DNA of 64,000 nucleotides from Azospirillum sp. (GTDB taxonomy: Bacteria; Pseudomonadota; Alphaproteobacteria; Azospirillales; Azospirillaceae): positions 6,474 through 70,473 of the forward strand of contig JAIXTS010000109.1 of NCBI GenBank assembly GCA_027483805.1. The letters run 5' to 3'. Below the pieces are notes generated by a model. It saw nothing but the letters and a program-made list of their open reading frames with translations. It was not told where the DNA came from and did no database searches. This document shows, one piece after another, positions 5,786-22,300 of the stretch (position 1 is the first letter of the stretch; every line of letters starts with the position of its first letter). The translations under genes and the position numbers were made by a program.

Positions 5786-7438
5786 TCACTGCCCAGGGTC
5801 AGGGGCGTCCGGCCGGTCCCCTTTTATCATATCCCGTACATAGCTCACCAGCGGGTCCCCCAGGGCTGCCGACCGGTCAAGCAAGGCTTCTGCGCCCTCC
5901 GCATCAAGGTCCATGCGCCAGAGCAGTTCGGCCAGCATGGTCATGGCCTCCATCACCCCGGCCTGCGCCGGTCCTTGCAAGGCCGCTCGCATCTTCTCCA
6001 GCGTTGCGCGGTCGTTCGGCCGGTGCAGCAGGGTCATGCGGGCCAGATTGATCTGGGCCGACAGATGGCCCTGCACGGCGGAGGCCGCAAACAGGTCGAT
6101 GGCGCGCTCATTATCCAGGGGCAGTTCCGTGCCCAGCGTCAGGGCATGGGCTACCCGGAACTGCCCCGATGCACTGCCAAGCTCTGCCGATGCGATGTAG
6201 AAATCGAAGGCGGCCTTCCGGTCCTGTGCCACCCCATTCCCGTGGTAGAGCATTGTTCCGTAATTATAGGTGGCATCCGCATGGCCGCGTTCAGCGGCCA
6301 TGCGCAGGTGCTCCGCCGCAATGACCGGGTTGGCGGGCACACCGCGCCCCAGAAGATGGCAAAGCCCCAGTTGAAACCGTGCTTCCGCGTGCTGTTCGGC
6401 GGCTTTGGCGAACAGTTCGGCCGCGCGCGCCGGGTCCTGATGTACACCTCTGCCGGAAAGATGGGCCAGCCCCAGCGCTGTCATCGCCGGCAGGTACCCC
6501 ACATCCATGGCGGCGGCATACCAGACGATGGCCTCTCCCGGGTTGGGGATTTGTGCCTTGCCCAGAGCGTGCAGGTCGGCCAGGAACACCATGCTTTCCG
6601 CATCACCCTTGACGGCGGCGCGCCGGAACCAGGTTTCCGCCTGCCCCACATCCACGGGCTGCTTGCCGATCCCGTTCAGATAAATCTGTCCCAGGGCGCG
6701 CATGGCCCCCGGCACGCCCGCGCCAGCGGCGCGGATCAGCCATTCGCGCCCCGTCTCGGGATCGGCCGCAATACCCGCCCCCTGCACCAGGCTGACCCCG
6801 AGATAGTAGAAGGCCGTCTTGTTACCGAGATCCGCCGCCTTCTGGTAGAGCGCGCAGGCATCTTCCGGTCCCTGGCCCGGCACCTCGCCAACGCTGATCA
6901 GGCCGGCCAGACCCACCATGGCCGGTGCGCTGCCTTGATCAGCGGCGCGGCTGTACCATTCGATGGCCTGGCTGATGTCGCGGCCCTCCGGGTCCTCCTC
7001 CATGCTGCATAGCCAACCCAGCAGGACCTGCGCTTCCATGTGGCCCTGCGCGCTGGCCAGGCGGGCCCAATGGCGGGCCTTGGCCCGGTCGCGCAGCACG
7101 ACCAGCGCCCCGTCATCCTGGGTCGTCTTCTTCTTTACATCCGGGTTGCCGACACCGGTTGAATAAACACCGGCAAGCCGTGCCTGGGCCTCTGCCTTTC
7201 CGGCATCGGCAGCACGTTCGTACCAGCGCATGGCGGATCGCAGATCGCGCAAGGTGCCCAGCCCGCGCCATAAGGCGTCGGCGACCGCCAGCTGGCAATC
7301 GGCATCACCAGCCTGGGCAGCGGTGTGCCAGATATCGACAGCCTTTTCCAAACGCCCCTTTGCCGCGGCTTGCTGGCCACGGGCGAACGGGGTGCCGTAC
7401 AGGCGGTTCTTCAACCGATCGACATATGTTTCTGTCAC
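5786..7438 (-). CDS. Sel1-like repeat protein (about 12 SLRs), no obvious signal peptide
   Basis: Recurrent A-x3-LG-x2-Y-x2-G-x-G…A-x2-W-x3-AA-x2-G units across 550 aa. Confidence 0.92.
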   Translation of the reverse strand: MTETYVDRLKNRLYGTPFARGQQAAAKGRLEKAVDIWHTAAQAGDADCQLAVADALWRGLGTLRDLRSAMRWYERAADAGKAEAQARLAGVYSTGVGNPDVKKKTTQDDGALVVLRDRAKARHWARLASAQGHMEAQVLLGWLCSMEEDPEGRDISQAIEWYSRAADQGSAPAMVGLAGLISVGEVPGQGPEDACALYQKAADLGNKTAFYYLGVSLVQGAGIAADPETGREWLIRAAGAGVPGAMRALGQIYLNGIGKQPVDVGQAETWFRRAAVKGDAESMVFLADLHALGKAQIPNPGEAIVWYAAAMDVGYLPAMTALGLAHLSGRGVHQDPARAAELFAKAAEQHAEARFQLGLCHLLGRGVPANPVIAAEHLRMAAERGHADATYNYGTMLYHGNGVAQDRKAAFDFYIASAELGSASGQFRVAHALTLGTELPLDNERAIDLFAASAVQGHLSAQINLARMTLLHRPNDRATLEKMRAALQGPAQAGVMEAMTMLAELLWRMDLDAEGAEALLDRSAALGDPLVSYVRDMIKGDRPDAPDPGQ

Positions 7439-7521: not shown

Positions 7522-8760
7522 TCAACAGGGACGGGGCAGACCGAACTCCCGATGCAGCATTTCCAGCCATCCCGGCAGTCCAACCTTTTCCAGATCAAAG
7601 CGTTCGACCACGGTCTGCCGGGCGGCCATCTGCAATTGCTTGCGCGGCTTGGCCGACATGCTCAGCGCAGTGGCCAGCCCCGATGCCACCGCCACGGGAT
7701 CATGGAAAGGGACCAGCAGGCCGTTGACGCCATGCTGCACCACCTCCGTCACCGGCCCGGTATCGGACGCGACCAACGAGACGCCGCAGGCCATGGCTTC
7801 CAGCATGGACCAGCTCAGCACGAAAGGGTAGGTGAGATAGAGATGCGCACGCGAAAGACGCATCAGATTGATGAAATCGGCATGCGGGATGTGGCCGGTG
7901 AAATGAACCCTGTCGGTGGGCAGGTCCCCGGCCAGTTCGGCCAGCATGTGTTCCCGCCAGCTTTCGCCGCCGGACGGGGGCGGTCCATAGCAACTGCTGT
8001 CACCGCCGGCAATGACAAGCCGAGTCGTCGGGCGGGACCGCAGCAGGGGCACAGCCGCCCGCATCATGATGTGGAAGCCGCGATAGGGTTCCAGGTCGCG
8101 CGCCACATAGGTGACGATTTCCTGGCCGGGCGACAGTCGGTGCCCGTCGGGCAACAGCATGGCCGTTGGCACGCCGGGGCTGGCAATGGCTGTATCGATC
8201 CCCTCATGGATCAGCGCCAACTTTTCCTGATAGGGTCGCGGGTGCAGGCTCCGTTGCCATCGGGTGGGCGAAACCCCTCTGTCCACCGCCTCAAGCTGGA
8301 GCAGGTTGACCATGTTCAGGGCACGCACCCGTGCCAGATCATAAAGGCTCAGCGGTGCCGGGGGGTCAAAACCCACATCCGCGCCGGTCCCCTGGTAATA
8401 GAACTCGAAATAGCCGACCAGCGGCACATCCGGCCATAGATCCTTCACGAACAGCAATTCACCCCAGCCATGATGGCCGATCACCAGGTCGGGGCGATAA
8501 CCGGCCTGCGATAGCAGCGTGCATGCCGCCAGCACCGACTGTCCCTGCCAGACCGCGGCCTCTGTGCGTGTCAGATAGGGATGGGTGCGGCTTTCCCCGC
8601 CATTATGCAGAACATAGCGGTGAAGCGTCACCCCATCGACCGTTTCCGCGGGTTCGCTGGCCATCGCGTCCACCTGGACGCCGGGTAAACAGGCCAGCCG
8701 GCGGGCCAGATGGATAAACTGCCCGGGGAAAACCTTATGGATAAACAGAACCTTGTACAT
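7522..8760 (-). CDS. Glycosyltransferase family 4 (Glyco_trans_4_3-type N-terminus)
   Basis: MYKVLFIHKVFPGQF, GHHGWGE, RDLEPYRGFH, YPFVLSWSMLEAMACG; start placed at ATG 8760. Confidence 0.92.
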   Translation of the reverse strand: MYKVLFIHKVFPGQFIHLARRLACLPGVQVDAMASEPAETVDGVTLHRYVLHNGGESRTHPYLTRTEAAVWQGQSVLAACTLLSQAGYRPDLVIGHHGWGELLFVKDLWPDVPLVGYFEFYYQGTGADVGFDPPAPLSLYDLARVRALNMVNLLQLEAVDRGVSPTRWQRSLHPRPYQEKLALIHEGIDTAIASPGVPTAMLLPDGHRLSPGQEIVTYVARDLEPYRGFHIMMRAAVPLLRSRPTTRLVIAGGDSSCYGPPPSGGESWREHMLAELAGDLPTDRVHFTGHIPHADFINLMRLSRAHLYLTYPFVLSWSMLEAMACGVSLVASDTGPVTEVVQHGVNGLLVPFHDPVAVASGLATALSMSAKPRKQLQMAARQTVVERFDLEKVGLPGWLEMLHREFGLPRPC

Positions 8761-8959
8761 ACATGTCCCACCTGGTCCACCGGCCCCTTGCCCGCGTAAG
8801 GGTCGCGCAGATGTCGCCGCCCGGCAAGACAATAGGGTTGCGTGTCACCGATAGCTGCCTATGGTGACGGTGCGGGCGGGCCGTCCCGTCATATCACATT
8901 GTAAGAGGAGCCATCCTTTGCAGTTCATCTGGCCGGACGCATTCGCCGAACCTGTATCC

Positions 8960-10939
8960 ATGACCTGTCCGGTCTGCGCCGACGCAGGCCCCCACCGCCC
9001 GGCATTGACCCTGCCATCGGCCGGACCTGGCGGGGCCGACTGGCGCCTGCTTGAATGCCTGTCCTGCCAATCCCGGTTCTCAACCGACCGCCAGGGCGCC
9101 GACTATCATGGTGGTGACGTGCCGGACACGCCCTTTCTCCATTATTACATGGAACAGGGTGCCGGGCTGCGGCCCATGCTGGAACCGCTTGGTTTTGCAG
9201 AACCGGGACCGGGTCGGATGCTTGAAATCGGCGGTGGTTTCGGGTTTCCCAGCGATTATGTGCAAACCGTGCTGGGCTGGACCGCCAAAGGGTATGATCC
9301 GTCCGGTCTTGCCGTCATGGGCAAGCGCTATCTGGGCCTGGACATCACGCGGGACTATTGGACCAGCGACACCCCGCTGACCGAGCCGTTCGACGTCGCC
9401 TATGCGTCGGAAGTGATTGAACATATCCCCGAACCTGGCCCATTTCTGGCCGCCTTGCGTCGGGCCGTGGGCCAGCACGGGGTGGTGGCTCTCACCACGC
9501 CCAACGGCGCTGCCCTCAATCCTGGAACAACCCCCGGCATGCTGGTGCCGATCGCCAGTCCTGGCCTGCATGTGACGCTGTTCAGCGCCAAGGGCCTGGA
9601 ACTGGCCTTGCGGTCGGCCGGATTCCCCCATGTGCGGGTAGAGGAGGACGGCTCGCAGTTGCTCGCCTTCGCCAGCGAGGCGCCGCTGCCGGCGCCGCGC
9701 CGGCTCGATGACGGTCGCTATATCGACTATCTCTATCGTCGGATCGGCACGCCAGACCTGGCGCCGGCCCTGCTTTCGGGTTTGCGGTACCGGCTTCTCA
9801 AGGAGTTGGTCAATCTGGGCGATGCCGCCGGCGCCTTGCGGCTATATGCCGAAATGGCGGTGGCCCTGCGGGACCGTTTCGCCATCGATATCGAGAATCC
9901 GGCGACGCTGACCATGCCCGCCGCCTCAATTGAAAGCCGGGAATGGTTGTCCCTGCTGCCCGGCAACATCACCGGCCTGCTCTATTTCCGCGCCGTCCTG
10001 GCCAACAATGCCGAGGGCGACGCCCGGTCCGCCGCCCTTTATGCGGGGCGCGCCGCACAGGTGGGCGCCTCGCTGCGACAGGTTCTGCGGGCCGTCGGCA
10101 TCGAAGATGGTGAAACCGAAGCCCTGGCGATGGCAGCCATGCACCTGCATCTGTCGGCGGCGGCCGGGCTCGGCGCCGACACCGCCCCCCTGCTGTCGGC
10201 GGTGGAACGCGGGACGGAAGACACGGGCCTGCTGCTGCCGGCCGGTTTCCGATCCCGGCTGCGGCACCTGGTGGTGCGGGATCTGCGGGCCACACGGCAC
10301 CCGGCCTTGCTGTGGCGGGCCTTGTCGGTCATGGAACCAGCGCCGGCGGATGAGCTTTCCCTTCTGTCCGATGGGCTTGCCGCCGGCCTTCCCGTCGCAC
10401 CCGTCGCCGCCTTCGAGGCGCTGCAGACAGCGCCGGATGCCGACGCCGTCCGGCAGGCCCTGCGGGAGATATGGTGTACACCGGGAATCGGTGAGGCACC
10501 CGCCAGCCTTGCCCATGCCCGTAAACTGGCCTTGATCCGGCTTGTCCTGCTGGGGGCCTATTCCGACGCAGAAACATTGTTTGATCTCTGGGGTGACCAG
10601 ACGCTGGCCGCGGACCGGTCGGTCGCGGATGCCCTCGCCATCGCCGCCTCTGCCCGGCGACAGGGCCGCGGCGGCGGTGACATACCCGGTTTTGCCGCGA
10701 TTGAAACGGCCCCGGATGCGCCGTCGGTGAAGCAGGCGCTCTGGTCGGTCTGGACCCTGCCGGATGCCGGGGAAAACCCGGCAATTATCCGACAGGCGCG
10801 AAAACTGACCCTGATCCGACTCGTGCTGCTTGGTGCGTTCGCCGATGCCGAAGCGCTGTTTGACGTCTGGGAAGACCCTTCCCTGGCCAATGACGAGCCG
10901 GTCGCCACGGCCCTGGCCATCGCAGCCTCTGCCCGCTGA
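8960..10939 (+). CDS. Class I SAM-dependent methyltransferase with N-terminal CxxC…CxxC, a helical middle region and a tandemly duplicated C-terminal module
   Basis: CPVC…CLSC, LEIGGGFG, SEVIEHIPEP, LTTPNG; the ORF extends to 8861 and the start is uncertain. Confidence 0.8.
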   Translation: MTCPVCADAGPHRPALTLPSAGPGGADWRLLECLSCQSRFSTDRQGADYHGGDVPDTPFLHYYMEQGAGLRPMLEPLGFAEPGPGRMLEIGGGFGFPSDYVQTVLGWTAKGYDPSGLAVMGKRYLGLDITRDYWTSDTPLTEPFDVAYASEVIEHIPEPGPFLAALRRAVGQHGVVALTTPNGAALNPGTTPGMLVPIASPGLHVTLFSAKGLELALRSAGFPHVRVEEDGSQLLAFASEAPLPAPRRLDDGRYIDYLYRRIGTPDLAPALLSGLRYRLLKELVNLGDAAGALRLYAEMAVALRDRFAIDIENPATLTMPAASIESREWLSLLPGNITGLLYFRAVLANNAEGDARSAALYAGRAAQVGASLRQVLRAVGIEDGETEALAMAAMHLHLSAAAGLGADTAPLLSAVERGTEDTGLLLPAGFRSRLRHLVVRDLRATRHPALLWRALSVMEPAPADELSLLSDGLAAGLPVAPVAAFEALQTAPDADAVRQALREIWCTPGIGEAPASLAHARKLALIRLVLLGAYSDAETLFDLWGDQTLAADRSVADALAIAASARRQGRGGGDIPGFAAIETAPDAPSVKQALWSVWTLPDAGENPAIIRQARKLTLIRLVLLGAFADAEALFDVWEDPSLANDEPVATALAIAASAR

Positions 10940-11204
10940 TCCACCATATCCCCGCCAGGACAAGGCGGGGTACCCCCTTGGGGGCGGGTTTCCTTTGCTT
11001 TTCCAATCAAGCACATACGGGAGAGGCAAACGGCCCCCACGGCAAGGCCTAAGACTTTCGGTCGATGACTTGAATGTACCAACGGCATTGCACAAAACCG
11101 CTGCTGGTGGTAAATAAAGATAAAATTTGATGTGGCGGATTGGGCTGCCGGTGTCCCATATGTGGGCCGCGCCGGGTGTTCATTTTTGTAGATGGGGGTA
11201 GGTT

Positions 11205-12122
11205 ATGGCTACGTTGTCGGGCGGTCAGACGATCGCCACTGTGGGTGTGACGGCGCAGGAGAACACGCAGATTACGCAAATTCTGCAATCGACGTTCTCC
11301 AGCTCGACCGTCGTCAACACACAGGTCAACACCTCCACCGGTGGCAGCACCGTGCCGACCCAACCGCTCACCTTCGGCACTTTCGACGTCACCAGCGTTT
11401 CTAACGTGGTCCTGGCGCCCAGCTCCAACAACTCGGTCGTCATCGCTAACGTCAGTTCGGCGCCGACCACGACAGGGTCGGTGACCAATCTGGTCGTTGA
11501 TTCTTCGGCCGGCAGCGTGGTGATCCAGGGTACGGCGGCAGGCACCGTGACCGGCCTGATCCTGCCGAGCGGTGGTGGCGCCTCCCTGGTGGTTGGCGAC
11601 GCCGGGACGCAGGTTATTGATGGTTCGCGCAGCACCTCCAATCAGACCATCGTCACCGGCGTTGGTAACGACACCGTGGTGGCCGGCTCCGGCAATGACA
11701 GCGTTACGCTGGGTGATTTCGGTATGGCCAATGGTGGTAATGGTGCCGACACGTTGATTGGCGGCCTGGGCAGCGCGACGCTGGGCGGCGGCGGCGGCGC
11801 CGACAGTATCGTGGCGTCGTCGGGCGGCGGCGTGCTGATCGGCGAGTCGGGTAACGACACGATGGTGGGTGGCGCCGGTAAGGATGTCTTCATCTATACC
11901 AGCAGCGGCGGCAATGACGTCATTTCCGGCTTCGATCCGGCCAACGATACGCTGGGTCTTGCCAACTTCAACGATATCTCGGCCGCCGGTCTGTCGCTCC
12001 AGGACATCATCAACCGGGCCACTGTCTCTGGTGGTAACACCATCCTGACCATGCCCGACGGCTCGACCATCACGATTGCCGGCGTTACCGGCGTGAACGT
12101 CAATTGGTTCACGATGAAGTAA
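11205..12122 (+). CDS. Small RTX (Ca2+-binding nonapeptide repeat) protein, probable type I secretion substrate or surface-layer protein
   Basis: 305 aa; repeats TGVGNDTVV, AGSGNDSVT, GGNGADTLI, GGGGADSIV, GESGNDTMV, GGAGKDVFI, SSGGNDVIS; no N-terminal signal peptide; C-terminal DGSTITIAGV…F pattern typical of T1SS cargo. Confidence 0.9.
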   Translation: MATLSGGQTIATVGVTAQENTQITQILQSTFSSSTVVNTQVNTSTGGSTVPTQPLTFGTFDVTSVSNVVLAPSSNNSVVIANVSSAPTTTGSVTNLVVDSSAGSVVIQGTAAGTVTGLILPSGGGASLVVGDAGTQVIDGSRSTSNQTIVTGVGNDTVVAGSGNDSVTLGDFGMANGGNGADTLIGGLGSATLGGGGGADSIVASSGGGVLIGESGNDTMVGGAGKDVFIYTSSGGNDVISGFDPANDTLGLANFNDISAAGLSLQDIINRATVSGGNTILTMPDGSTITIAGVTGVNVNWFTMK

Positions 12123-12147
12123 AAAGCCGGTCCCCTTCAAGACCTTG

Positions 12148-12180
12148 GAAATGGCGGACTTTTGTCCGCCATTTCTGTTT
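12148..12180 (+). terminator. Rho-independent terminator after the RTX gene
   Basis: Perfect 12-bp stem GAAATGGCGGAC-TTTT-GTCCGCCATTTC followed by TGTTT. Confidence 0.8.
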
Positions 12181-12188
12181 GGTAGTCT

Positions 12189-13007
12189 GTGGTGACAAAA
12201 GTGGATCCGAATGTGGTGGTCATGTCGATAGCGAATGGGTTGGTCGCAACAGCAACGCGTGACGGCGGCGCTGATCGTTTCCGGTCGGTGCCACAAGTGC
12301 TCCAGTTGCCGGAAGGCCTGTACCTTGCTGCTCTGAAACCGACCGCACAGGCCCCGACACTGATCAACGGTGTCGCTTTCCCGGCCACACAGATTTCATC
12401 CATCCCGCAACCGGGCACAATCCCGCCCAGCATGCTGTACAAGGGGCATCTTGCGCCGGTCGTGTGGCTAAGCGGGCTGGATGTCGCCGTCATCACCGTG
12501 CCGGCCGGCGGATCGCCCCTGCTGGTCACGAATTATCTCTACGGACCGGAATTGCAGAAATCCGTGGATCTGGAGATCACGCGGCTGGATCGGGTTCAGA
12601 AGATACCCCCGGTGGGATTGATCGTTCACGCCCATATCCAACAGATGGGCGAACTGAAATTTGCGGCCGGTGAATGGGCCGCGACCGACGCCCCCTTCTG
12701 GATTGAGGCGTTGCAGCTGGAGGTTTCGCCCGGCATTGGTCAATTGCTGCAATACCGGGTACCGGGTGTCAGCACATCCGATGGCGCCTGGACACCGGCG
12801 CCGGGCCGAATCGGCGTTCCGGGTGGGCCGCCCTTGGCGGGCATCGCCTTCCGCCTGCTGCCCCCCCTCTCTGAAAGCCATCGGGTCGTCTATGCCGCCC
12901 GCTTCCTGCGTCACGGTGAAATCTCGGGCATGGATGGTGAGCCGTGCCGTTCGCCCCAGGCACAGGATCCGATGATTGCCGTCCGGGTGGCCGTTGTCCC
13001 CCGGTGA
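12189..13007 (+). CDS. Hypothetical protein with C-terminal ChW (hydrophobic-W)-like repeats
   Basis: 272-aa ORF, GTG start; HAHIQQMG…GEWAAT…WIEALQL and two weaker repeats. The domain call is by eye. Confidence 0.75.
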   Translation: MVTKVDPNVVVMSIANGLVATATRDGGADRFRSVPQVLQLPEGLYLAALKPTAQAPTLINGVAFPATQISSIPQPGTIPPSMLYKGHLAPVVWLSGLDVAVITVPAGGSPLLVTNYLYGPELQKSVDLEITRLDRVQKIPPVGLIVHAHIQQMGELKFAAGEWAATDAPFWIEALQLEVSPGIGQLLQYRVPGVSTSDGAWTPAPGRIGVPGGPPLAGIAFRLLPPLSESHRVVYAARFLRHGEISGMDGEPCRSPQAQDPMIAVRVAVVPR

Positions 13008-15807
13008 CGTACCGCCAACCGACGGTGGCGCGTCGGCTCTTTCTTCCACTGGACGGCCGGCGATACGGGCCCGCATCTTTAAGGCCATCGCGGATCAGGA
13101 TTTTGATCTGGCCACGGTGCTCGCCCAATATCTTTCGCGGCTGGAACCGATCCAGGCTGATGACCTGACGGTCGCCGCCGTCGCCTGGATTTGCCGGGGC
13201 GACACCGGCGTCGCCCGCCAGTTGCTGGATCGTGCGCTTGATCTTGATCCGCACCAGAAGATGGCGGCCATGGCTATGGCACGGGTGACGGGATGTCTGC
13301 CCGACTCCGCTCTGGTGGCATTACGCTGGCATGCGGAAACGGACCCGGAAGCGGTCAAGATGCTCGTGTCCCATGTCGCGGCCACCGGCGCCCCCCAGGC
13401 TTTTGTGGCCGCCCGCGACGTGCGGTGCCTTGTCCCGCCTGGGGCGTGGCATGTGGATCTGCGTTGGCGCCACCTGACCCTGGCGGAGGTTCGGCTGGAA
13501 CCTTCCGATCAGGTCCGGCAGGTCATCCTGCCCTGTCCGGGCCCCCTGCGCGGTATCATCGACCCCACCGTCCATCTGGATGGCGCCGCTCTGGCGCAGG
13601 GTGCGTTCCCCGCCGCCCTTCTGGCCGCGCCGCGCCTGACCGCCTCGGTACAGGCCATCAGTCCCCGCCTATGGCATGTCCAGGCGATGGATCTGGCGGC
13701 GCCGTCCCGGCCTGTTGCCGTGCAGTTGCGTGATGGTGGTCAGGTTCTGGGCCGCCATATCTGCGTGCCGGCCGCCGACCAGAACGCAACCGGTCTTGAA
13801 AGCTCACCCGTTCTTTCGATCGAAATTCCGGCGGACACCACCCATCCGGCCCTCCATGCCGAATTGACCGGTGAACCGTTGGGCCCGCCACCACCGGCCG
13901 GTCCGGATGATGGTATTGTCGATGTGATCGTGCCCGTGCATGGCGATCTTGATGCCACACGGGCCTGCTTCACGGCCCTTCTGTCCCTTGACCCTGGCAC
14001 CCCCATGCGGGTCATCGCCATTGATGACAGCGCTCCCGATCCCCGGATCAGTGCCCTGCTGAATGACCTGGCCCACCAGAGGCGTATCGCCCTGATCCGC
14101 AATCCCGGCAATCTGGGTTTTGTGCGGTCCGTCAATATCGGCATGGCCGCGCATCATGGGCGTGACGTCGTGCTGCTGAATGCCGATACGCTGGTGGCCG
14201 CGGGCTGGCTTGCCCGTCTGCGCCAGGCGGCCGGCGCAGCAGCGGATATCGGGACCATCACGCCCTGGTCCAATGACGCGACCATCTGTTCCTATCCGGC
14301 CGCCAATCGGCCGACCCCGCTCTCTGGCGTGGATGTGGCGATGCTGGACCGGCTGGCCGCCGCCACCCTGTCCCGTCAATCCATCCCTCTGCCCACCGCC
14401 ATTGGCTTCTGCATGTATATCCGCCGGGCATGTTTGGCACAGACCGGCTGGTTCGACGCCGATGCCTTCGGGACCGGTTATGGTGAAGAGAATGATTTCT
14501 GCCTGCGCGCAACCGCACGCGGATGGCGTCATCAGATGGCGATGGATGTCTATGTCGGGCATGTTGGCGGCGGCTCCTTTGGTGCGGCCAAGCAGGCCCG
14601 GATCGCATCCGCTCTGCGGGTCCTGGAACATCGCTACCCCGGATATGGGCAGGACATTCAGGCGTTCATTGCGGCCGATCCGCTGAAGCCGGCACGGCGC
14701 ATGCTGGATATCGCACAGGTGCGGCAAGCAGGAATCCGGCGTCCGCTGTTGATCCTGTGTGCGGCCCTGGGTGGCGGTACCGATCGTTTCATCCGGACAC
14801 AGATCGACCAGAACCGGCGCTCGGGGCGCGATGCGCTGATCCTGCGTCCCGAACAACAGGATGGAAGGATTACCCTGCGTCTGGAGGTTCCGGACCGACC
14901 AGCCCTTGCCAACCTTGTCTATGATCCGCAGACGGAACTGCCCCAGTTGCGCAGCGACCTCAACCAGTTGGGGGTGACTGAACTGGCGTTGCACCACGCC
15001 ATGCATCTGCCGCCGGCCCTGCTGCCGGTGCTGACCGCCTGGTTCCCCTTTCGGGCCTATGTCCATGATTATGGCTGGATCTGCCCCCGCTACACCCTGA
15101 TTGACGGCAGCGGGCGCTATTGCGGGGAACCGGAGCACGCGTCCATATGCGACCGCTGTGTCGCCGACCATGGTGACCTGATGGGCCTGGGCATGCCGGT
15201 GGCGGATTGGCGTGACCTGACGCGGACGGTTCTGACCTCGGCGCAGTCGGTCAGTTGTTCCAGTGGCGATTCCGTCACGCGTATGCGCCGCTACATGCCA
15301 GAGGCACGGTTTCAGGTTCAACCGGCGGAACCGACCCTGTCGCCGGCCCCGGTCCTGCGCTCCGTCGCCCCGCGCCGCCCATCGCAATCCCTGCGTATCG
15401 TGGTGCCCGGCGCCATTGGACAAAGCAAAGGGTATGATGTTCTGTTGGCCTGTGCCCGGGACGCCGCCCAACGGGGCCTGCCCTTGACGTTCCTGCTGCT
15501 GGGTTACAGCATGGATGACGATGCGCTTCTGGCCACCGGCCATGTGGAGGTGACGGGACGCTACCGGGAGGATGAAGTCCCTGCCCTGATGGCACAGTTG
15601 CGGCCACACATCGCCTTTTTACCATCCGTCTGGCCGGAGACCTGGTGCTATGCGCTGACCCATGTCATGTCCGAGGGATTGTTTGTGGTCGCCTTCGATC
15701 TGGGGGCGCAGGCCGAACGTTTACGCCAACGTGGCCATGGCATGCTGCTGCCGCTGGCCGCCGGGGCGACAGCCATCAATGATGCGCTGCTGCGCGCCGG
15801 CGATTGA
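12976..15807 (+). CDS. Multidomain glycosyltransferase: unknown N-terminal region, GT2 and GT4-like GT-B domain
   Basis: DVIVPVHG…IDD…LGFVRSVN…LLNADT…GFCMYIRR…GYGEENDF, then GGGTDRF…HDY…CPR…KGYDVL…PSVWPETWCYAL; start uncertain. Confidence 0.9.
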   Translation: MPSGWPLSPGDVPPTDGGASALSSTGRPAIRARIFKAIADQDFDLATVLAQYLSRLEPIQADDLTVAAVAWICRGDTGVARQLLDRALDLDPHQKMAAMAMARVTGCLPDSALVALRWHAETDPEAVKMLVSHVAATGAPQAFVAARDVRCLVPPGAWHVDLRWRHLTLAEVRLEPSDQVRQVILPCPGPLRGIIDPTVHLDGAALAQGAFPAALLAAPRLTASVQAISPRLWHVQAMDLAAPSRPVAVQLRDGGQVLGRHICVPAADQNATGLESSPVLSIEIPADTTHPALHAELTGEPLGPPPPAGPDDGIVDVIVPVHGDLDATRACFTALLSLDPGTPMRVIAIDDSAPDPRISALLNDLAHQRRIALIRNPGNLGFVRSVNIGMAAHHGRDVVLLNADTLVAAGWLARLRQAAGAAADIGTITPWSNDATICSYPAANRPTPLSGVDVAMLDRLAAATLSRQSIPLPTAIGFCMYIRRACLAQTGWFDADAFGTGYGEENDFCLRATARGWRHQMAMDVYVGHVGGGSFGAAKQARIASALRVLEHRYPGYGQDIQAFIAADPLKPARRMLDIAQVRQAGIRRPLLILCAALGGGTDRFIRTQIDQNRRSGRDALILRPEQQDGRITLRLEVPDRPALANLVYDPQTELPQLRSDLNQLGVTELALHHAMHLPPALLPVLTAWFPFRAYVHDYGWICPRYTLIDGSGRYCGEPEHASICDRCVADHGDLMGLGMPVADWRDLTRTVLTSAQSVSCSSGDSVTRMRRYMPEARFQVQPAEPTLSPAPVLRSVAPRRPSQSLRIVVPGAIGQSKGYDVLLACARDAAQRGLPLTFLLLGYSMDDDALLATGHVEVTGRYREDEVPALMAQLRPHIAFLPSVWPETWCYALTHVMSEGLFVVAFDLGAQAERLRQRGHGMLLPLAAGATAINDALLRAGD

Positions 15808-15858: not shown

Positions 15859-16641
15859 TCAGCTTTTACGCCAGAAGGTGCCCGTCCAGTCGATGTCGAC
15901 CATCGGGTCTGCGATCCCCCGACGCTGACGGAAGTCACGGACCGCGTCCGCGCAGGCCGGCACGGCCCCGTGATCATCAATGATCACATATCCGCCGGAC
16001 GGAACGCGGTCGTACAAGGCGTCCAGCGCCACCATGGTGGATTCATAAAGATCGCCGTCCAGCCGCAAGACGGCAATGGACCGGACCGGGGCGTTGGGCA
16101 GCGTGTCGCGGAACCAGCCCTCGATAAAGCGGACCCGACCATCCAACAGGCCGAAACGCCGGAAATTCTCCTCCACCACGGCGCGCCCGGCCTTCAGATA
16201 GTCGATGGTGCTGAGATCCAGGCTGAATTCCCCCGGATAGCGTTCAAAGTCGGGCGCCGGCAAGCCCTGGAAACTGTCGGCCAACCAGACCCAGCGGTCC
16301 TGCGCGCCCAGCACATCCAGGACAGCCTTGGCGAAGATGCAGGCGCCGCCCCGCCAGACCCCGGTTTCGACCACGTCGCCGGGAACATCATCCGCCACGA
16401 CCTGTTCAATACAATGGCGCAGATTGTCCAGACGCTTTAATCCCGACATGGAATAGGCGCGCTGCGGCCAATCCCCGCCTTCGCCCCGGATCGCGCGCCT
16501 GACGGCAAGATCGTTCAGGTCGCGTTCGGCATAGTCGGGGCGGACGAACTGTGAACCATCATGGATGCTGATATTCACATAATCGGTCAGCACCTGCGCC
16601 AGCAGCGAAAGGTACCGCTCCTGCGAAGGATCAACGGGCAT
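15859..16641 (-). CDS. TylF/MycF/NovP-family sugar O-methyltransferase
   Basis: GDVVETGVWRGG, ADSFQGLP, GWFRDTLP, LRLDGDLYEST, IIDD; start placed at MPVDPS (16641). Confidence 0.93.
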   Translation of the reverse strand: MPVDPSQERYLSLLAQVLTDYVNISIHDGSQFVRPDYAERDLNDLAVRRAIRGEGGDWPQRAYSMSGLKRLDNLRHCIEQVVADDVPGDVVETGVWRGGACIFAKAVLDVLGAQDRWVWLADSFQGLPAPDFERYPGEFSLDLSTIDYLKAGRAVVEENFRRFGLLDGRVRFIEGWFRDTLPNAPVRSIAVLRLDGDLYESTMVALDALYDRVPSGGYVIIDDHGAVPACADAVRDFRQRRGIADPMVDIDWTGTFWRKS

Positions 16642-17001
16642 ATGATTTTCCCCTGGGCCGCAGCATGGCCAATCGACAATGCGTGACTGTTGTCGCTCAG
16701 CGACGGCAACAGCCCGGTGTCCACGACAGAATATTGCCACATCAGGGCAAGATTCCCATGTGGCAGCGGACCACCGCCATGGTTTATGAGGGTTCTAACA
16801 ATGTGGTATCCTCCCGACAATAGGTTTCAGCATGTCGAAACACCCATGGAAGCCGCTGAATTGCCAATGAAAACCACCTTCGACCCTGGCTTCGCGGATT
16901 GTCCGGTACCAATGGCAGCGCTGTAACATGGCCCCTCGATCCATCACCGGCCTGCCCGTGCCGGCCCCCCGTTCTGGCGGCGTGATCGCGGGCGGCAAGG
17001 C

Positions 17002-17844
17002 ATGAAACCCGTCCATTCGGCGATCATCCGGGCCGATCTCGGCCCGTTGGGACCCTTCACCACCATCTGGCGGCACCGGACGCTGATCGGGCGTCTGACA
17101 CGCCGGGAACTGGCGGGTCGCTATCGCGGCTCATTGCTTGGGCTGGTCTGGGCGGTTCTCACGCCACTGCTGATGCTGGCGGTCTATACGTTCGTATTCT
17201 CCACCGTGTTTCAGTCGCGGTGGACCGGGTCGGTGGAGCAGCAGCCGGGGGAATACGCGCTGTTCCTGTTCGCGGGCCTGACCCTGTTTAACATCCTGGC
17301 GGAAAGCCTGAACAGGTCGCCGGGACTGATGCTGGAAAATGTCAGCTACATCAAAAAAGTCGTCTTCCCTCTGGAAGTGATGCCGGTCGTCATCCTGGCG
17401 GGCGCGCTGGTCAATGCCGGGATCAGCATGCTGGTGCTGGTGGCGTTCTATATCCCCTATCGCGGCCTACCACCTGAAAGCGCCCTGCTGGCGCCGTTGG
17501 TGCTTCTTCCCTTCTGTCTTCTGGCCTTGGGCCTTTGCTGGTTCCTGGCTGCGGCAGGTGTGTTTCTGCGCGATATCCGGCAGTTCATCGGCGTTCTGGT
17601 CACCCTGCTGCTGTTTCTCAGCCCGGTCTTCTACCCGGCGGGCGGGGTTCCGGAGAAGCTGGATATCCTGCTGGCCGTGAACCCGCTGACACCCCTGCTG
17701 GAGCAGTGGCGGGCCTGCCTTTTTGAAGGCAAGGGCCTTGATCCCTGGGGCTTTCTCCAGGCCGCGGGGCTGGGCTGGCTGGCGGCCTGGCTGGGACATT
17801 TGTTTTTTGCCAAGGCCCGCGACGGTTTCGCCGATGTCGTATAA
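17002..17844 (+). CDS. wzm: Polysaccharide ABC exporter permease Wzm
   Basis: RELAGRYRGSLLGLVWAVLTPLLML, IKKVVFP, SPVFYP, NP…; six hydrophobic segments. Confidence 0.95.
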   Translation: MKPVHSAIIRADLGPLGPFTTIWRHRTLIGRLTRRELAGRYRGSLLGLVWAVLTPLLMLAVYTFVFSTVFQSRWTGSVEQQPGEYALFLFAGLTLFNILAESLNRSPGLMLENVSYIKKVVFPLEVMPVVILAGALVNAGISMLVLVAFYIPYRGLPPESALLAPLVLLPFCLLALGLCWFLAAAGVFLRDIRQFIGVLVTLLLFLSPVFYPAGGVPEKLDILLAVNPLTPLLEQWRACLFEGKGLDPWGFLQAAGLGWLAAWLGHLFFAKARDGFADVV

Positions 17845-17898
17845 TGCCAAGCCAAGGGCGCGGCTGCGCCCGCCCGGCGCCTGCGGGTCGGAAAGGGA

Positions 17899-19236
17899 GT
17901 GACGGCCTTGTCGTCTGCGAACATGGGCCCGGTTTCAGCAAACCTTGCCGTGCGGGTGGATGGGGTCGGCAAATGCTACGCCATCTACAGGTCCCCGGCC
18001 GACCGCATGAAACAGATGTTCTGGCCCTGGCGCCGGTTCCATGAGGAATATTGGGCCTTGCGGGACGTCACCCTGCATGTGGCAAAGGGGCAGACGGTCG
18101 GCATCCTGGGGCGTAACGGCGCCGGCAAATCGACCTTGCTGCAGCTGATCACCGGCACATTATCCCCAACCCTGGGCCAGGTGGAGGTGGGCGGACGGGT
18201 GGCCGCCCTGCTGGAACTGGGCGCTGGTTTCAACCCGGAATTCACCGGCCGCGAGAATGTGTATCTGGCGGCAAGCCTGCTGGGCCTGACCGAAACACAG
18301 ATCAAGCAGCGGTTTGACGCCATCACGGCTTTTGCCGGTATCGGGGATTTCCTGGATCAACCGGTGAAGCTCTATTCCAGCGGCATGTATTCCCGCCTGG
18401 CCTTTGCCGTGGCGGCCCATGTTGATGCCGATATCCTGATCATCGATGAAATCCTGGCGGTGGGTGACGCGGCCTTCACGCAGAAATGCATGCGGTTCAT
18501 TGATGATTTCAAAAAGCGTGGAACCATCCTGTTTGTCAGCCATGATGCCGGTGCCATGGCAAAGCTGTGCGACCGCATTCTATGGCTGGATGGCGGCGGG
18601 GTTCGCATGGAAGGCCCGCCAAAGGACGTGCTGGAAGCCTATATGGCGGCCATCCACATGGAAGGTGATGCCGGGCAGTTGCGGGTTGGCGGCCGCCGGC
18701 GCGGACCGCCGCCGCCCGACGCGCTGAAAGCGCCGCCGCCCAGCGCCGTGAAGGTCTTTGATTTCGATCCAGATGCCCCTCAGTTCGGGGCGGGCGGTGC
18801 CCGTGTGCGGGGCGCCACCCTGGCCATCGAAGGCGGCAGCGACTCGGTCCTGTCCGGCGGTCAGGAGGTTGTCCTGTCGGTCGTGGCGGAAATTCTGACC
18901 CCGATGCAGCAACCGATTCTGGGCTTCCTGGTCAAGGATCGGCTGGGCCAGAACATCTTTGTCGACAATACCTGTCAGACCTATCCCATCCAGCCCCGCG
19001 CCCTGCACCCTGGCGATATCCTGACAGCGCGTTTCCATTTCTACATGCCGCATCTGGCGGATGGCGATTACGCCGTCAGTGTCGCGGTCGCGGAGGGGAC
19101 GGAGCAGGCCCATGTGCAGCATCATTGGCTGCATGATGCGCTGTTTTTCCGGGTGGCCAACACACGGCCGTTCCGCGGACTTGTCGCGGTGCCCATGCTG
19201 GACATCACCCTGCGGATCAATGACGACACACCCTGA
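17899..19236 (+). CDS. wzt: Polysaccharide ABC exporter ATPase Wzt with C-terminal carbohydrate-binding domain
   Basis: GRNGAGKST, YSSGM, IIDE; about 190-aa C-terminal Wzt_C-like extension; RBS AAAGGGAG before GTG. Confidence 0.95.
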   Translation: MTALSSANMGPVSANLAVRVDGVGKCYAIYRSPADRMKQMFWPWRRFHEEYWALRDVTLHVAKGQTVGILGRNGAGKSTLLQLITGTLSPTLGQVEVGGRVAALLELGAGFNPEFTGRENVYLAASLLGLTETQIKQRFDAITAFAGIGDFLDQPVKLYSSGMYSRLAFAVAAHVDADILIIDEILAVGDAAFTQKCMRFIDDFKKRGTILFVSHDAGAMAKLCDRILWLDGGGVRMEGPPKDVLEAYMAAIHMEGDAGQLRVGGRRRGPPPPDALKAPPPSAVKVFDFDPDAPQFGAGGARVRGATLAIEGGSDSVLSGGQEVVLSVVAEILTPMQQPILGFLVKDRLGQNIFVDNTCQTYPIQPRALHPGDILTARFHFYMPHLADGDYAVSVAVAEGTEQAHVQHHWLHDALFFRVANTRPFRGLVAVPMLDITLRINDDTP

Positions 19237-19397
19237 GCCGGCCCCTGAGCAGGGATCGGTCCAGGCGCCCCTGCCACCGGGGTCATTGTCCAACCGTAAC
19301 GATGGCTTGCGGCTTGCAGCTTCCAGAATGATCACGGTCCTGCTACCGTCGGCCGGGCCACGGGCGGAGCATTTGCCGGTTTGAGAGGAGGTCGCCT

Positions 19398-22300
19398 TTG
19401 GCGCAGCATATGTTGGATCGACAGCCGCAATACCTGTCCCGGCTGGGCCGCGCGTCCGCTTTCATGATCCCCGACCGGGTTGTCCACCCGCCCTCCTGGG
19501 TGGGGCACATCCCTTTCGCCTTCTGGATCGTCGATATCCTGCGGCCCGCGGTTCTGGTCGAATTGGGAACCCATAGCGGCAATTCCTATTCCGCCTTCTG
19601 TCAGGCGGTGCAGACGCTGGGGATATCCACACGCTGCCACGCCGTCGATACATGGGCCGGCGATCCGCAGGCCGGCCTTTACGGGCCGGAAGTGCTGGCC
19701 GACCTTTCCGCCCACCACGATCCCCGCTATGGGGCCTTCTCAACACTCATGCAGATGCGTTTCGATCAGGCCTTGGCGCATTTTGCCGACGGCTCCATCG
19801 ACCTGCTGCATATTGACGGGCTGCACACCTATGATGCTGTGCGCCATGATTTTGAAACCTGGCTGCCGAAAATGAGCCGGCGCGGGGTTATCCTGTTCCA
19901 TGACATCAATGTGCATCAGCCCGATTTTGGTGTCTGGAAATTATGGGCGGAAATCACCGTCGACCGGCCGCATTTTTCCTTCCTGCATTGTCACGGGCTG
20001 GGTGTGCTGGCCGTCGGCGATGACCTTCCCGATGACCTGCGCTGGCTGTTCGCCGCCCACGGGCAAGATGCCGATGATGCGGCAGGGGTCCATGCCTTCT
20101 TCGCCCGATTGGGCGACGCAATTGTCGATGGCTATCTGTCCTGCGAACGCCAGCGTGTCATACAGGCCCTGGAGAGCACCGTCCGCAGCCGTGAAGCAGA
20201 GCTGATCCCCCTTCGGCTTCAGATCCTGGACCGCGACCGCAGGATCGCCGACCTGACCAGGGCGCGCCAGGAAGATCAGCAGCAGCGCCACGCCGAGATC
20301 ACCCGCCTCAATGATGATCTCCAGGACCAGAGCCGGCTGTTGGCGGCCCATATTGCCATGGTGCAGGAGCGGGATCGGCAGATCCTGGGCTTTCTCCAGT
20401 CAACCTCCTGGCAGTTGACCGCGCCGATCCGGGCCCTTCGCCGTCTGGTCGATCGGGCCCGGCGCGTCTCCTTGCGCCAGTTGCGCCGCCTTCAACAGCG
20501 TCCCTTGACCCATCGGATGACGGTGGCCCAGACGCATCAGATCCAGGCCGACGCATCCGCCGCCCCTGGCGGTCCTTATGAAAGCACAGGCGACGATCCG
20601 CAGCTGATCCTTGTGTCCGACCAGAAACGGGCGCCGCACGGATGGTGTGTGCTTTCCTTTACGGTCGCGGACGCGTCCAGCCCTTTGCTGCCCATGATCT
20701 ATGCCGATACCGGCAATGGCTTCACCGATCAGACGGCGATCGCCCTGCCGCCCGTTCGCGATGGCCGTCTGGAACAATTGTTGGTCCTGTCGCCGGATAC
20801 ACGATCCCTCAGGCTGGACCCGACGATTGAAGCCGCGCGGTTCCAGCTTTCCGGAATCCAGGTGCGGGAAATCAGCCAGGCGGAAGCCCTGTACCGTCTG
20901 GTGCGCCGATATGGGCGCGACTGGCGGCTTGAATGGCGGTCGCTGGCAGCCACGGGGCAGGATCGCGCCGGTCATGACCGGACAGCACAGTTGCTGCGTG
21001 CCAACGTCGCCGGCTCCTACGACCGCTGGGTGGCTTTGTATGACACGCTGCATGACTGGGACCGGGCGGCGATCCGCAACGATATCGGCTCATGGGCAGA
21101 CCGGCCGGTGATCTCGATCCTGATGCCGGTCTATAACCCGCCGGTGGCGTTTCTGCGCCAGGCGCTGGATTCTGTGCAGGGCCAGCTTTATCCCCATTGG
21201 GAATTGTGCATTGCGGATGATGCATCGACCGACCCGGCGGTCGGCGCCCTCCTCCGGGACTATGCGGCCCGTGAACAGCGCATCAAGCTGGTGTTCCGGC
21301 CCGCCAATGGCAATATCGCCGCCGCATCGAACACGGCCCTGGAATTGGTCAGCGGTGCTTTCGTGGCCCTGATGGACCATGATGACATGCTGCCCCCCCA
21401 CGCGCTGTACCGGGTGGCGATGGAGATTGGTCTGCATCCGCAGGCCGATCTGATCTATTCCGACCAGGACAAGATCGACGCCGGCAATCGCCGCTATGGA
21501 CCGTATTTCAAGACCGACTGGAACCCCGATCTGTTGTGCGGTCAGAATATGGTCAGCCATCTGGGGGTGTACCGGACCAGCCTGCTGCGCGATATTGGCG
21601 GTTTCCGGGAGGGGTATGATGGCAGCCAGGATTATGATCTGGTTCTGCGCGCCAGCGAACTGACCACGCCTGACCGTATCCGCCATATTCCGCATGTGCT
21701 CTATCATTGGCGGGTGTTCCAGGGGTCTTCCTCCTTCACCAGCACGGAATTGCCGCGGGCCGTAACGGCCGCAAGACGTGCCATCCAGGATCACCTGGAC
21801 CGTACCGCCCCCGGGGCACGGGCGGAACCGGTGCCCGGCATGGAATGGTTCACCCGTGTCGTGCATGCCCTGCCGGAGCCGGCACCAAAGGTGACGCTGA
21901 TTGTCCCGACGCGCGACAAGGTCGAACTGCTGCGCCCCTGCATCGACAGCCTGCTGCGGCAGACCGACTACCCGGCGTTCGAGATTATTATCGTCGATAA
22001 TGGCAGCCGGGCGCCGGAAACCCACACTTACTTCGCAGAACTGGCCAGCAACCCCCAGGTACAGGTACTGCCCTACGACCAGCCCTTCAATTACTCCGCC
22101 CTCAACAATCACGCCGCCACCCTGGCCAGCGGCGAACTGCTGGGGCTGGTCAATAATGACATCAAGGTGATCAATCCCGGCTGGCTGCGCGAAATGGTGT
22201 CCCAGGCCCTGCGGCCGGGCGTTGGTGTCGTCGGGGCCAAACTCTATTATGGCGACAGCCGGGTGCAGCATGCAGGCGTGGTCACCGGCATCCTGGGCGT

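Follow-up and report, generated by a model that had tools for sequence, protein, structure and literature searches.

A small RTX gene, located in the 64,000-nucleotide stretch of DNA analysed here (the window), encodes a 305-aa protein that we think serves a glycan system coupled to secretion, of the ExpE1/WgeA kind, as its secreted, stoichiometric and non-enzymatic protein partner, a reading to which we give a probability of roughly 0.55. Judged from gene content and gene order in its relatives, the gene is tied to a glycosyltransferase module as well as to a type I secretion system (T1SS) of its own, an association that the initial annotation of this DNA had missed and that makes ExpE1/WgeA, from the galactoglucan cluster of Sinorhizobium, the studied precedent. 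The RTX protein, the soluble glycosyltransferases and the secretion system appear to be inherited together, which would place the same coupling in a different enzymatic setting, and the RTX gene seems to be wired for stoichiometric rather than catalytic output.

Sequence and predicted structure of the RTX protein

The RTX gene and the features surrounding it are listed in Table 1. Its product has a mass computed from the sequence of 29.4 kDa and a pI of 4.05, contains neither Cys nor His, and is rich in Gly (52 of the 305 residues), Thr (41), Ser (37) and Val (36); Cys was absent from every true member of the family. The sole Pfam match was to PF00353 (33.5 bits, cut-off 23), and nine GGxGxD-type nonapeptides could be read directly at residues 151-231. 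Residues 1-30 constitute a conserved N-terminal cap with a helix at 17-30 and are followed by a Ser/Thr/Val-rich beta-helix at residues 31-120 that varies among orthologues. The C-terminal 75 residues are highly conserved, and the last 35 are the best-conserved part of the family (80-85% identity). Ser and Thr account for 30-43% of residues 1-120, in agreement with the Ser/Thr-rich N-terminal half described earlier, and for 23-43% of the variable region in every member of the family.

An AlphaFold model (pLDDT 89, pTM 0.87) was all beta over residues 36-301, and the fold is predicted to be one long beta-roll/beta-helix rod. The best Foldseek matches of the model were T1SS (RTX) lipases, serralysins, the RTX blocks of CyaA and the R-modules of AlgE, and the sequence matches to the C-terminal part were likewise to T1SS lipases, serralysins and CyaA. 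Neither an N-terminal signal peptide nor a hydrophobic N-terminus was seen, and hydrophobic segments were absent from the protein (19-residue Kyte-Doolittle means of 1.4 at most). With PF00353 as the only domain, the size of 305 aa, the lack of Cys and the lack of an enzymatic or pore-forming domain noted in the initial annotation were all borne out, and the data support a product that is non-enzymatic and not pore-forming. A pore-forming RTX cytolysin of the HlyA type was considered and rejected, as the protein is only 305 aa long and has no hydrophobic domain. No acyltransferase was identified among the scanned neighbour genes, and no literature was found on this RTX protein in Niveispirillum or Nitrospirillum.

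Table 1. Coordinates of the RTX gene, its putative transcription and translation signals, and the neighbouring genes in the window.
Feature	Position	Strand	Basis and remarks
Sel1-repeat protein, 550 aa, co-inherited module	5786..7438	-	Pfam Sel1; no signal peptide, no TM
GT4 glycosyltransferase (PF12000 + PF00534), ExpC-like	7522..8832	-	Pfam
Class I methyltransferase, 692 aa, long C-terminal extension	8861..10939	+	Pfam Methyltransf_23
Spacer, 265 bp: promoter-like block and 5' leader of ~70-82 nt	10940..11204	+	Alignment, GC
TTGCAC, conserved -35-like element	11088..11093	+	17 nt upstream of TAAATA hexamer
TGGTAAATA, extended -10-like element (TGnTAnAnn)	11108..11116	+	Orthologue alignment
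Second -10 candidate TAAAAT (11121-11126) and contig 5'-end position (~11135)	11121..11135	+	Contig homology
Shine-Dalgarno-like TGGGGGT, 6 nt before ATG	11193..11199	+	GGGG(G) kept in all aligned orthologues
RTX gene, 305-aa product	11205..12122	+	ORF translation, Pfam, AlphaFold model
Candidate terminator/attenuator hairpin, 13-bp stem, 4-nt loop	12147..12176	+	Folding, conservation; weak U tail 12177-12185
272-aa protein, no Pfam match	12189..13007	+	Start of GT gene overlapped
Soluble glycosyltransferase, 943 aa, GT2 + GT1 domains	12976..15807	+	Pfam
Adjacent ABC-transporter glycan genes, four	15859..22775	.	Pfam
TylF-type O-methyltransferase	15859-16740	-	Pfam
Wzm	17002-17844		Pfam
Wzt with Wzt_C domain	17899-19236		Pfam
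MT-GT2-GT2	19398-22775		Pfam

Transcription signals flanking the gene

The promoter-like block and the hairpin were established by comparison across orthologues, not by motif scans. In an alignment of 12 orthologous upstream regions, the TTGC of the -35-like element was invariant in the 11 regions that reach this site, and the columns TG.TA.A of the extended -10-like element were conserved across orthologues; the block, including TGGTAAATA, was not called by a simple sigma-70 scan. The 5' ends of public contigs for two orthologues (P0006 and P0025) fall at a homologous G-C...TTGG site, so the real start probably lies between ~11123 and 11135. The spacer was exactly as long as first described, but its description as visibly more AT-rich was overstated: with a GC content of 54.7%, against an intergenic mean of 60.2% (sd 6.2) in the genome, it falls at the 17th percentile, which is mildly AT-rich and not unusual. 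A search of Rfam over positions 10850-12300 gave nothing meaningful, and no significant RNA fold was predicted for the 5' leader or for the region that follows the methyltransferase gene.

The hairpin beyond the stop codon has a perfect stem with a z-score of -3.75, and none of 200 shuffled sequences folded as well. A strong hairpin was present 3' of the RTX stop codon in all 23 related loci, with the core ATGGCGG...CCGCCAT identical in 21 of these and placed ~20 nt after the stop, and double compensatory changes were observed in 3 of 12 hairpin pairs. The hairpin sequence occurs only once in the genome, and a generic repeated terminator element was rejected for this reason. The weak U-run (CUGUUUGGU) explains why a simple terminator scan missed the hairpin. 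Thus, while the stem and its conservation agree with the perfect terminator proposed for this gene, the U-run in this genome does not. Only 12 nt separate the end of the hairpin from the start codon that follows, so the downstream enzyme genes would be fed by read-through only. Taken from the alignments, the evidence supports the RTX gene as a real self-contained transcription unit with a conserved promoter-like block and a terminator of its own.

Codon usage and transcript-like contigs

We calculated codon adaptation indices (CAI) using as reference 16 ribosomal-protein genes of the S10/spc cluster (contig C448); EF-Tu was unusable for this purpose, being unassembled in this MAG. The RTX gene had a CAI of 0.629 and ranked 830 among 3707 genes (78th percentile), compared with means of 0.717 for the ribosomal-protein genes and 0.569 for the genome. 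After correction for amino-acid composition, its codon usage was about half-way, at z=+2.0 above the genome average and z=-2.6 below ribosomal-like usage. The clearest signal came from glycine, for which the codons GGA/GGG were used in 2 of 52 cases versus 28% genome-wide (p=8e-6). Such a bias is not a general trait of RTX genes, an explanation that we rejected on finding that two other RTX paralogues of the genome use GGA/GGG at 19% and 47%. The strong codon bias first claimed for the gene is therefore real but moderate in strength, and the term "very highly expressed" goes too far for a gene whose adaptation is well below that of the ribosomal-protein and best-adapted genes. The genes flanking it are poorly adapted (CAI 0.42-0.53), so that the RTX gene stands out within its island, and its CAI exceeded that of both downstream genes in each of the 21 relatives scored.

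We also identified ten public contigs of ~1 kb, representing three orthologues and four run series (SRR352955xx, ERR9698289, DRR5095xx and SRR24204630), that contain only the leader, the ORF and the start of the hairpin. They begin 46-87 nt upstream of the ATG, and 6 of the 10 end 11-35 nt past the stop codon; among the short contigs, two 3' ends lie within the 5' arm of the hairpin and two at its apex. The RTX gene was complete in all six runs with the P0006 orthologue, and the next gene in one of them. A Trinity assembly of the transcriptome of Planopodium desertum, an amoeba, also contains an orthologue, 67% identical. The ~1-kb contigs look like products of an abundant monocistronic mRNA, provided that the runs are RNA libraries; a contig encoding an identical RTX protein (L007) begins upstream of the promoter block, and at least that run is therefore probably DNA. 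Together with codon usage, the contigs favour the earlier proposal that the RTX gene is expressed above the downstream enzymes, as far as an expression ratio can be deduced from such data.

Conservation of the RTX module and its probable secretion pump

The RTX family was present in 12 of 16 Niveispirillum and 10 of 10 Nitrospirillum genomes and in none of 17 other genera of the taxonomic family. The gene for the 272-aa protein was found in exactly the 22 genomes bearing the RTX family; it always adjoins the RTX gene and lies directly downstream of it except in the rearranged locus of N. fermenti (L023), where a second RTX copy stands at the start of the canonical operon. The order RTX, 272-aa protein and GT2-GT1 with a GT4 nearby was retained in 22 of 23 loci, and a GT4 copy was located near the RTX gene in all 23. 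The methyltransferase gene is conserved upstream in Niveispirillum, and the Sel1 gene was present in all Niveispirillum loci and, in Nitrospirillum, on the same strand 3' of the T1SS ABC-MFP genes. No TM segments were detected in the enzymes of the module or in the Sel1 protein. In Azospirillum and another genus, the same module was preceded by different RTX proteins (368 and 1018 aa), and the Azospirillum homologue of the GT2-GT1 enzyme has a TPR at its N-terminus and, fused to its C-terminus, a copy of the 272-aa partner.

All 22 RTX-bearing genomes encode an orthologous HlyB-type ABC transporter, 63-100% identical and best matched by TIGR01846, together with a HlyD partner that scores above the TIGR01843 cut-off, and the orthologous pump was missing from both complete Niveispirillum genomes that have no RTX gene. 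The distance between the two varies: in 8 of the 12 Niveispirillum genomes the pump and the RTX gene are less than 10 kb apart, in this assembly the pump is on another contig (C316), and in Nitrospirillum it is 350-440 kb away. There, GT4, ABC, MFP and Sel1 genes form an array on the same strand, beside two RgpF genes and a methyltransferase gene. In total, the HlyB/HlyD-type system, the ExpC-like GT4, the Sel1 protein and RgpF all co-occur exactly with the RTX family, and we infer that the RTX protein is a type I secretion substrate. As a side observation, the minimal set in Nitrospirillum consists of the RTX, 272-aa protein, GT2-GT1, methyltransferase and GT4 genes and the separate array of GT4, ABC, MFP and Sel1.

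These patterns bear on the simplest alternative, that of an unrelated secreted RTX protein (an adhesin, a Ca2+ buffer, or a NodO-like or bacteriocin-like protein) in a glycan-gene neighbourhood without functional meaning. Alphaproteobacteria commonly encode small RTX proteins whose role is unknown, and all matches outside the family were generic to RTX, as this view would have it. However, it does not account for the RTX family being found in exactly the same genomes as the 272-aa protein (22 of 22) and the orthologous pump, or for the persistence of the gene order across genera even with the RTX protein replaced by a different one, and the protein has no hydrophobic or pore-forming region. 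We regard this alternative as very improbable.

Linkage to the Wzm/Wzt glycan genes was confined to some genomes. Only the window, L003/L098, L021 and L024 have a Wzt-type ABC ATPase gene in the vicinity of the RTX gene, and both Wzm and Wzt are annotated in TH16. This neighbourhood is relevant to the possibility of an LPS-anchored lattice in which the N-terminal part of the RTX protein would bind the O-polysaccharide of the Wzm/Wzt pathway and coat the cell, as in the S-layer of Caulobacter. The Caulobacter protein RsaA is likewise a T1SS-dependent RTX protein that lacks Cys, is encoded near O-antigen genes and is anchored to a glycan, the O-antigen. A gene with its own promoter and terminator and with better codon usage than its neighbours, a product with a variable N-terminal and a conserved C-terminal half, as in exposed surface proteins, and the presence of Wzm, Wzt with its Wzt_C domain and methyltransferases beside the RTX gene here and in three other loci would all fit this model. 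On the other hand, RsaA has ~1026 aa and is among the most abundant proteins of the cell, whereas the RTX protein has 305 aa, a mass of 29 kDa that is small for an S-layer subunit, and mid-to-upper codon adaptation, much lower than a protein coating the whole cell usually shows. No S-layer chain, from RsaA or any other protein, occurred among the 35 matches by sequence or the 50 top-ranking fold matches listed, 7 of which had E<=0.001, so the S-layer or sheath subunit suggested in the initial annotation gained no specific link. Moreover, Wzm and Wzt are unlinked in most genomes, whereas the soluble glycosyltransferase module and the T1SS are always linked. An S-layer role is thus possible but in our view unlikely, and the RTX gene is no demonstrated S-layer gene.

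Proposed role of the RTX protein

According to the reading that we favour, the RTX protein would be the dedicated substrate of the HlyB/HlyD-type system, and its partners would be soluble cytoplasmic sugar- and methyltransferases, namely the TPR-GT2-GT1 enzyme with the 272-aa protein, the ExpC-like GT4, Sel1, the methyltransferase and RgpF. The gene's own conserved promoter would give an mRNA of ~1.0 kb that mostly ends at the conserved hairpin; with the downstream genes dependent on read-through, the RTX protein should be made in stoichiometric excess over the enzymes. It would be exported unfolded and C-terminus first, fold with Ca2+ outside the cell and act there together with the glycan of the module. 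In the version that we prefer, it would serve as an extracellular or surface-bound partner in assembly and export of the glycan, with the variable N-terminal half exposed.

Alternatively, the RTX protein may itself carry the glycan. Here, the soluble glycosyltransferases, guided by TPR and Sel1 repeats, would build sugars on the Ser/Thr-rich N-terminal half in the cytoplasm, and the T1SS would export the conjugate with the C-terminus leading and the glycan following behind. Synthesis primed by a protein in this way would explain a minimal module without a lipid-carrier priming enzyme or glycan exporter, and in Nitrospirillum no Wzm/Wzt, Wzx/Wzy or priming transferase genes were found within 10 kb of the minimal set. 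The solubility of all module enzymes, the TPR on the Azospirillum glycosyltransferase, the Sel1 protein of the module and the richness in Ser and Thr throughout the family point in the same direction, and glycosylated RTX surface proteins have been reported in cyanobacteria (SwmA and oscillin, PMC3034196), although these are much larger (130 kDa and 646 aa, respectively), belong to another phylum and are linked to motility. Yet type I secretion passes unfolded chains through a narrow channel, and we found no example of a T1SS substrate that is glycosylated in the cytoplasm. In addition, the N-terminal half is confidently predicted to be an ordinary beta-helix with Ser and Thr simply facing outward, the ExpE1-like protein has no Ser/Thr-rich N-terminal region, and genes for Wzm and Wzt adjoin the module in this window. 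Overall, we consider a glycan carrier rather doubtful.

A bolder extension of the carrier model, quite unlikely in our estimate, is that the protein is both primer and tow-rope of a protein-primed route of glycan export. The TPR/Sel1-guided soluble glycosyltransferases would then build the chain on the N-terminal half, HlyB/HlyD/TolC would export the protein C-terminus first, and the beta-roll would fold outside the cell, driven by Ca2+, and thereby pull the attached linear glycan through the channel. If true, this would explain the indispensability of ExpE1-type proteins for polysaccharide secretion, the minimal modules that contain neither a lipid-carrier priming enzyme nor an exporter, and the need for stoichiometric amounts of protein.

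Both Nitrospirillum amazonense and Niveispirillum irakense can be cultured, live in association with plants and have one copy of the gene, which makes them convenient for distinguishing between a glycan partner, a glycan carrier and a surface-layer subunit.

Comparison with known systems

In size, the RTX protein resembles NodO, a cation-channel-forming nodulation factor whose gene lies outside any glycosyltransferase operon. NodO of Rhizobium leguminosarum bv. viciae is likewise an RTX protein, of 30 kDa; it is secreted by a type I system (PrsDE) with no N-terminal cleavage (PMC3034196).

By our comparison, the nearest known system is ExpE1/WgeA of the galactoglucan (EPS II) exp/wg cluster of S. 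meliloti. ExpE1/WgeA leaves the cell through ExpD1/ExpD2 and TolC, and both the protein and its secretion are needed to produce galactoglucan, by a mechanism that is unknown (PMC1403797, PMC2912261). It has been unexplained since 2000 why Sinorhizobium should need an exported RTX protein, along with a pump of the protein type, to make this polysaccharide.

There are clear differences between the two systems. The RTX protein has an additional N-terminal beta-helix of 120-150 residues compared with the ExpE1-like protein (219 aa), and the 36% identity between them extends over 183 residues that comprise only the generic RTX and C-terminal regions; no S. meliloti plasmid gave a match at E<=1e-8. 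The pump described here is of the HlyB type with an N-terminal extension and is 25-28% identical to that of the exp cluster. Unlike the exp cluster, the RTX locus has neither pyruvyl transferases nor a MarR regulator, and the TPR-GT2-GT1 enzyme, the 272-aa protein, Sel1 and RgpF had no match in the Ensifer exp cluster.

The similarities concern the overall design. Both systems combine a small gene for a Ca2+-binding RTX protein with a cluster-associated ABC/MFP type I system (ExpD1/ExpD2, also named WgdA/WgdB), and in both the RTX gene heads a row of glycosyltransferase and methyltransferase genes. The gene order in the Ensifer exp cluster is T1SS, RTX, GT2, MT and GT4, and the order RTX, GT2, MT and GT4 recurs in Nitrospirillum and Azospirillum. 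The two also have in common an ExpC (WgcA)-like GT4: the GT4 protein of the window is 43% identical over 407 residues (E=1.6e-88) to the GT4 encoded beside the MarR gene in the exp cluster of Ensifer canadensis.

Sequence and predicted fold of the RTX protein

The initial description of the RTX protein is correct: it is 305 residues long and contains no Cys. In Pfam it matches only the RTX nonapeptide repeat, and it yielded no hydrophobic segment. It also lacks His, is dominated by Gly (52 residues), Thr (41), Ser (37) and Val (36), and has a calculated mass of 29.4 kDa and a pI of 4.05. Nine GGxGxD-type nonapeptides can be read in residues 151-231, and NCBIfam returned partial matches with hemolysins, a polyurethane esterase and serralysins in their C-terminal RTX regions. 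A profile of the RTX family matched solved structures over residues ~113-294 only, namely CyaA RTX blocks, family I.3 lipases, serralysins and AlgE R-modules. A confident AlphaFold model (pLDDT 89, pTM 0.87), for which 34 members of the family were used, begins with a short strand at the N-terminus and a helix at residues 17-30; a segment of lower confidence (residues 41-60) follows, and from there to residue 301 strands are predicted throughout. Foldseek searches with this model again retrieved lipases and proteases of type I secretion systems (T1SS) and CyaA blocks. No S-layer protein was among the Foldseek matches listed, and the S-layer role put forward initially is quite unlikely.

Codon usage and transcript-like contigs

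To estimate expression levels, we calculated the CAI for the 3707 genes called in the genome, using 16 ribosomal-protein genes on a single contig (C448) as the reference. The value for the RTX gene was 0.629 (78th percentile), which is above the genome mean of 0.569 but below the ribosomal-gene mean of 0.717. Corrected for amino acid content, its codon usage was above the genome average (z=+2.0) and below ribosomal-like usage (z=-2.6). The glycine codons GGA and GGG are avoided (2/52 versus 28% genome-wide, p=8e-6), a trait not shared by two RTX paralogs. Genes neighboring the RTX gene had CAI values of 0.42-0.53, and the RTX gene exceeded both downstream genes in all 21 relatives scored. The codon signal is thus real but moderate, falling short of the strong bias and very high expression initially proposed.

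Orthologs were also present in public assemblies. One of 69% identity was found on six contigs from six runs, all starting 66-71 nt upstream of the ATG; two end 11-13 nt past the stop codon and four extend 0.5-1.5 kb further. Every one of these runs contains the whole RTX gene, but only one of them the whole next gene. Another project contained three contigs of 990-1012 nt with only a 51%-identical ortholog, whose starts coincide with the homologous leader position or lie 22 nt further in, and which end 17 nt past the stop codon (one contig) or at the hairpin apex (two contigs). A fourth ortholog was represented by one 1018-nt contig of the same shape, and a Trinity transcriptome of an amoeba contains a 67%-identical ortholog. 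This is the pattern that would be expected from an abundant monocistronic mRNA, and if the runs are RNA, the assemblies would provide support for expression that is independent of codon usage.

Putative regulatory sequences flanking the gene

The upstream spacer has exactly the length first annotated, whereas its supposed AT-richness is not marked, the GC content being at the 17th percentile among intergenic regions of this genome. The orthologous upstream regions have in common a promoter-like block (Table), an element resembling TAAAAT and a ribosome-binding site of the sequence GGGGG. Nitrospirillum has a separate, highly conserved upstream region of its own, in which ~200 nt before the RTX start are almost invariant across loci L026-L036; it holds paired segments, for example CACGCG...CGCGT and GCCGCAGC...GCTGCGGC, so this region may contain a regulatory site or a leader that is long and structured.

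Table. Features of the RTX gene region and of related loci (G, genomes; C, contigs; L, related loci)
Feature	Location	Strand	Description
RTX gene	11205-12122	+	ORF, 305 residues
Spacer 5' of RTX gene			265 bp, 54.7% GC
Promoter-like block	11088-11116	+	TTGC(AC), 17 nt, TGnTAAAT
Hairpin	12147-12176	+	Perfect 13-bp stem, 4-nt loop, z=-3.75
Paralogous HlyB-like ABC gene	G113:C47:111180-113306		Example
Paralogous HlyB-like ABC gene	G108:C9:79716-81842		Example
RTX copy, N. fermenti	G107:C5:136563-137459	+
RTX copy, N. fermenti	G107:C5:141505-142395	-
Nitrospirillum pump array	L106 (G101:C1:643001-662000), 3444-16447		Same-strand genes; also in L107
Putative donor synthesis genes	L031, 4930-9466	-	HAD-UbiA prenyltransferase fusion, FAD-binding oxidase, epimerase
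M10 protease gene	L099 (Azospirillum, G068:C4), 3455-5221	-	Serralysin-type RTX protease
170-aa gene	C221:4373-4882		Genome of the window
170-aa gene	C352:5721-6230		Genome of the window

The terminator assigned to the RTX gene has a perfect stem but a weak U-run, because of which a consensus terminator scan misses it. A strong hairpin follows the RTX stop codon in 23/23 related loci, and in 21 of these it starts ~20 nt past the stop codon and retains the core ATGGCGG...CCGCCAT. In the stem alignment seven pairs are invariant, three show double compensatory changes and only 2/192 cells are unpaired; this comparison across loci makes the signal convincing. Only 12 nt separate the end of the hairpin from the next start codon, so the downstream genes depend on read-through. 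The seven pairs are sequence-identical between two genera in which the RTX proteins are only ~45% identical. The motif also has no second occurrence in this genome. Since such conservation exceeds the needs of termination alone, an additional protein-binding or mRNA-stability role is possible.

Gene neighborhood and secretion pump

The window belongs to a Niveispirillum MAG. Within the bacterial family, only Niveispirillum (12/16 genomes) and Nitrospirillum (10/10) carry the RTX family, and the 272-aa protein occurs in exactly these 22 genomes. The gene order RTX, 272-aa protein, GT2-GT1 is kept in 22/23 loci, the exception being a rearranged locus in N. fermenti (L023), where a second RTX copy heads the canonical operon. 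The two N. fermenti copies are ~4 kb apart, one heading the usual operon and the other alone and convergent with it. An ExpC-like GT4 gene lies near the RTX gene in all 23 loci. In Niveispirillum, Sel1 and the GT4 are additionally encoded on the opposite strand, with a gene for a long methyltransferase upstream and RgpF downstream. In Azospirillum and one further genus, the glycosyltransferase module sits behind different RTX proteins (368 and 1018 aa), with the 272-aa partner fused to the glycosyltransferase and a TPR at the N-terminus of the latter. None of the enzymes in the module has a membrane segment, and Wzm/Wzt-type transporter genes adjoin it in only four loci. Divergent from one Nitrospirillum RTX operon is a gene set that resembles decaprenyl-phosphoryl-arabinose-type donor synthesis, and one Azospirillum RTX-glycosyltransferase module has an M10 protease gene at a distance of a few kb.

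An orthologous HlyB-type ABC transporter with its HlyD (MFP) partner was identified in 22/22 RTX-carrying genomes and is absent from both complete Niveispirillum genomes without the RTX gene; a merely coincidental location of the RTX gene beside glycan genes is highly improbable. In 8/12 Niveispirillum genomes the pump and the RTX gene are no more than 10 kb apart, and in the window's assembly the pump is found together with RgpF on contig C316. In Nitrospirillum it is encoded in an array of GT4, ABC, MFP and Sel1 genes 350-440 kb from the RTX gene, and the system is therefore split into two loci. This array is flanked by two RgpF genes and by a gene for a methyltransferase of 1408 aa, in which C-terminal modules are repeated. 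A paralogous HlyB-like ABC gene (41-43% identity) is interrupted by a single in-frame TGA in each of the 12 searched Niveispirillum genomes that contain it. The window's genome has two near-identical 170-aa genes, and of EF-Tu it contains only 38 C-terminal residues, encoded where a contig ends; strain mixing or collapsed repeats in the MAG are therefore possible.

Comparison with the exp system

Taken together, the RTX gene is a self-contained, probably well-expressed unit, and its product is predicted to be a secreted, non-enzymatic RTX rod that belongs to a secretion-coupled glycan system. Our preferred reading is that the protein acts as an ExpE1-like extracellular partner, the probability of about 0.55 applying to this reading in its broad form; that it is instead a carrier of the glycan seems doubtful. 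ExpE1/WgeA, a small secreted protein that binds Ca2+, leaves the cell via ExpD1/ExpD2 and TolC and is needed for galactoglucan to be produced (PMC1403797, PMC2912261). The exp cluster of Ensifer canadensis, in the order T1SS, RTX (219 aa), GT2, MT and GT4, encodes an ExpC-like GT4 with 43% identity to that in the window and an RTX protein that can be aligned, at 36%, to the RTX protein in the window over 183 C-terminal residues. However, the remaining genes are not common to the two and the pumps belong to different subtypes, and the RTX module would thus work like the exp system without being its ortholog.
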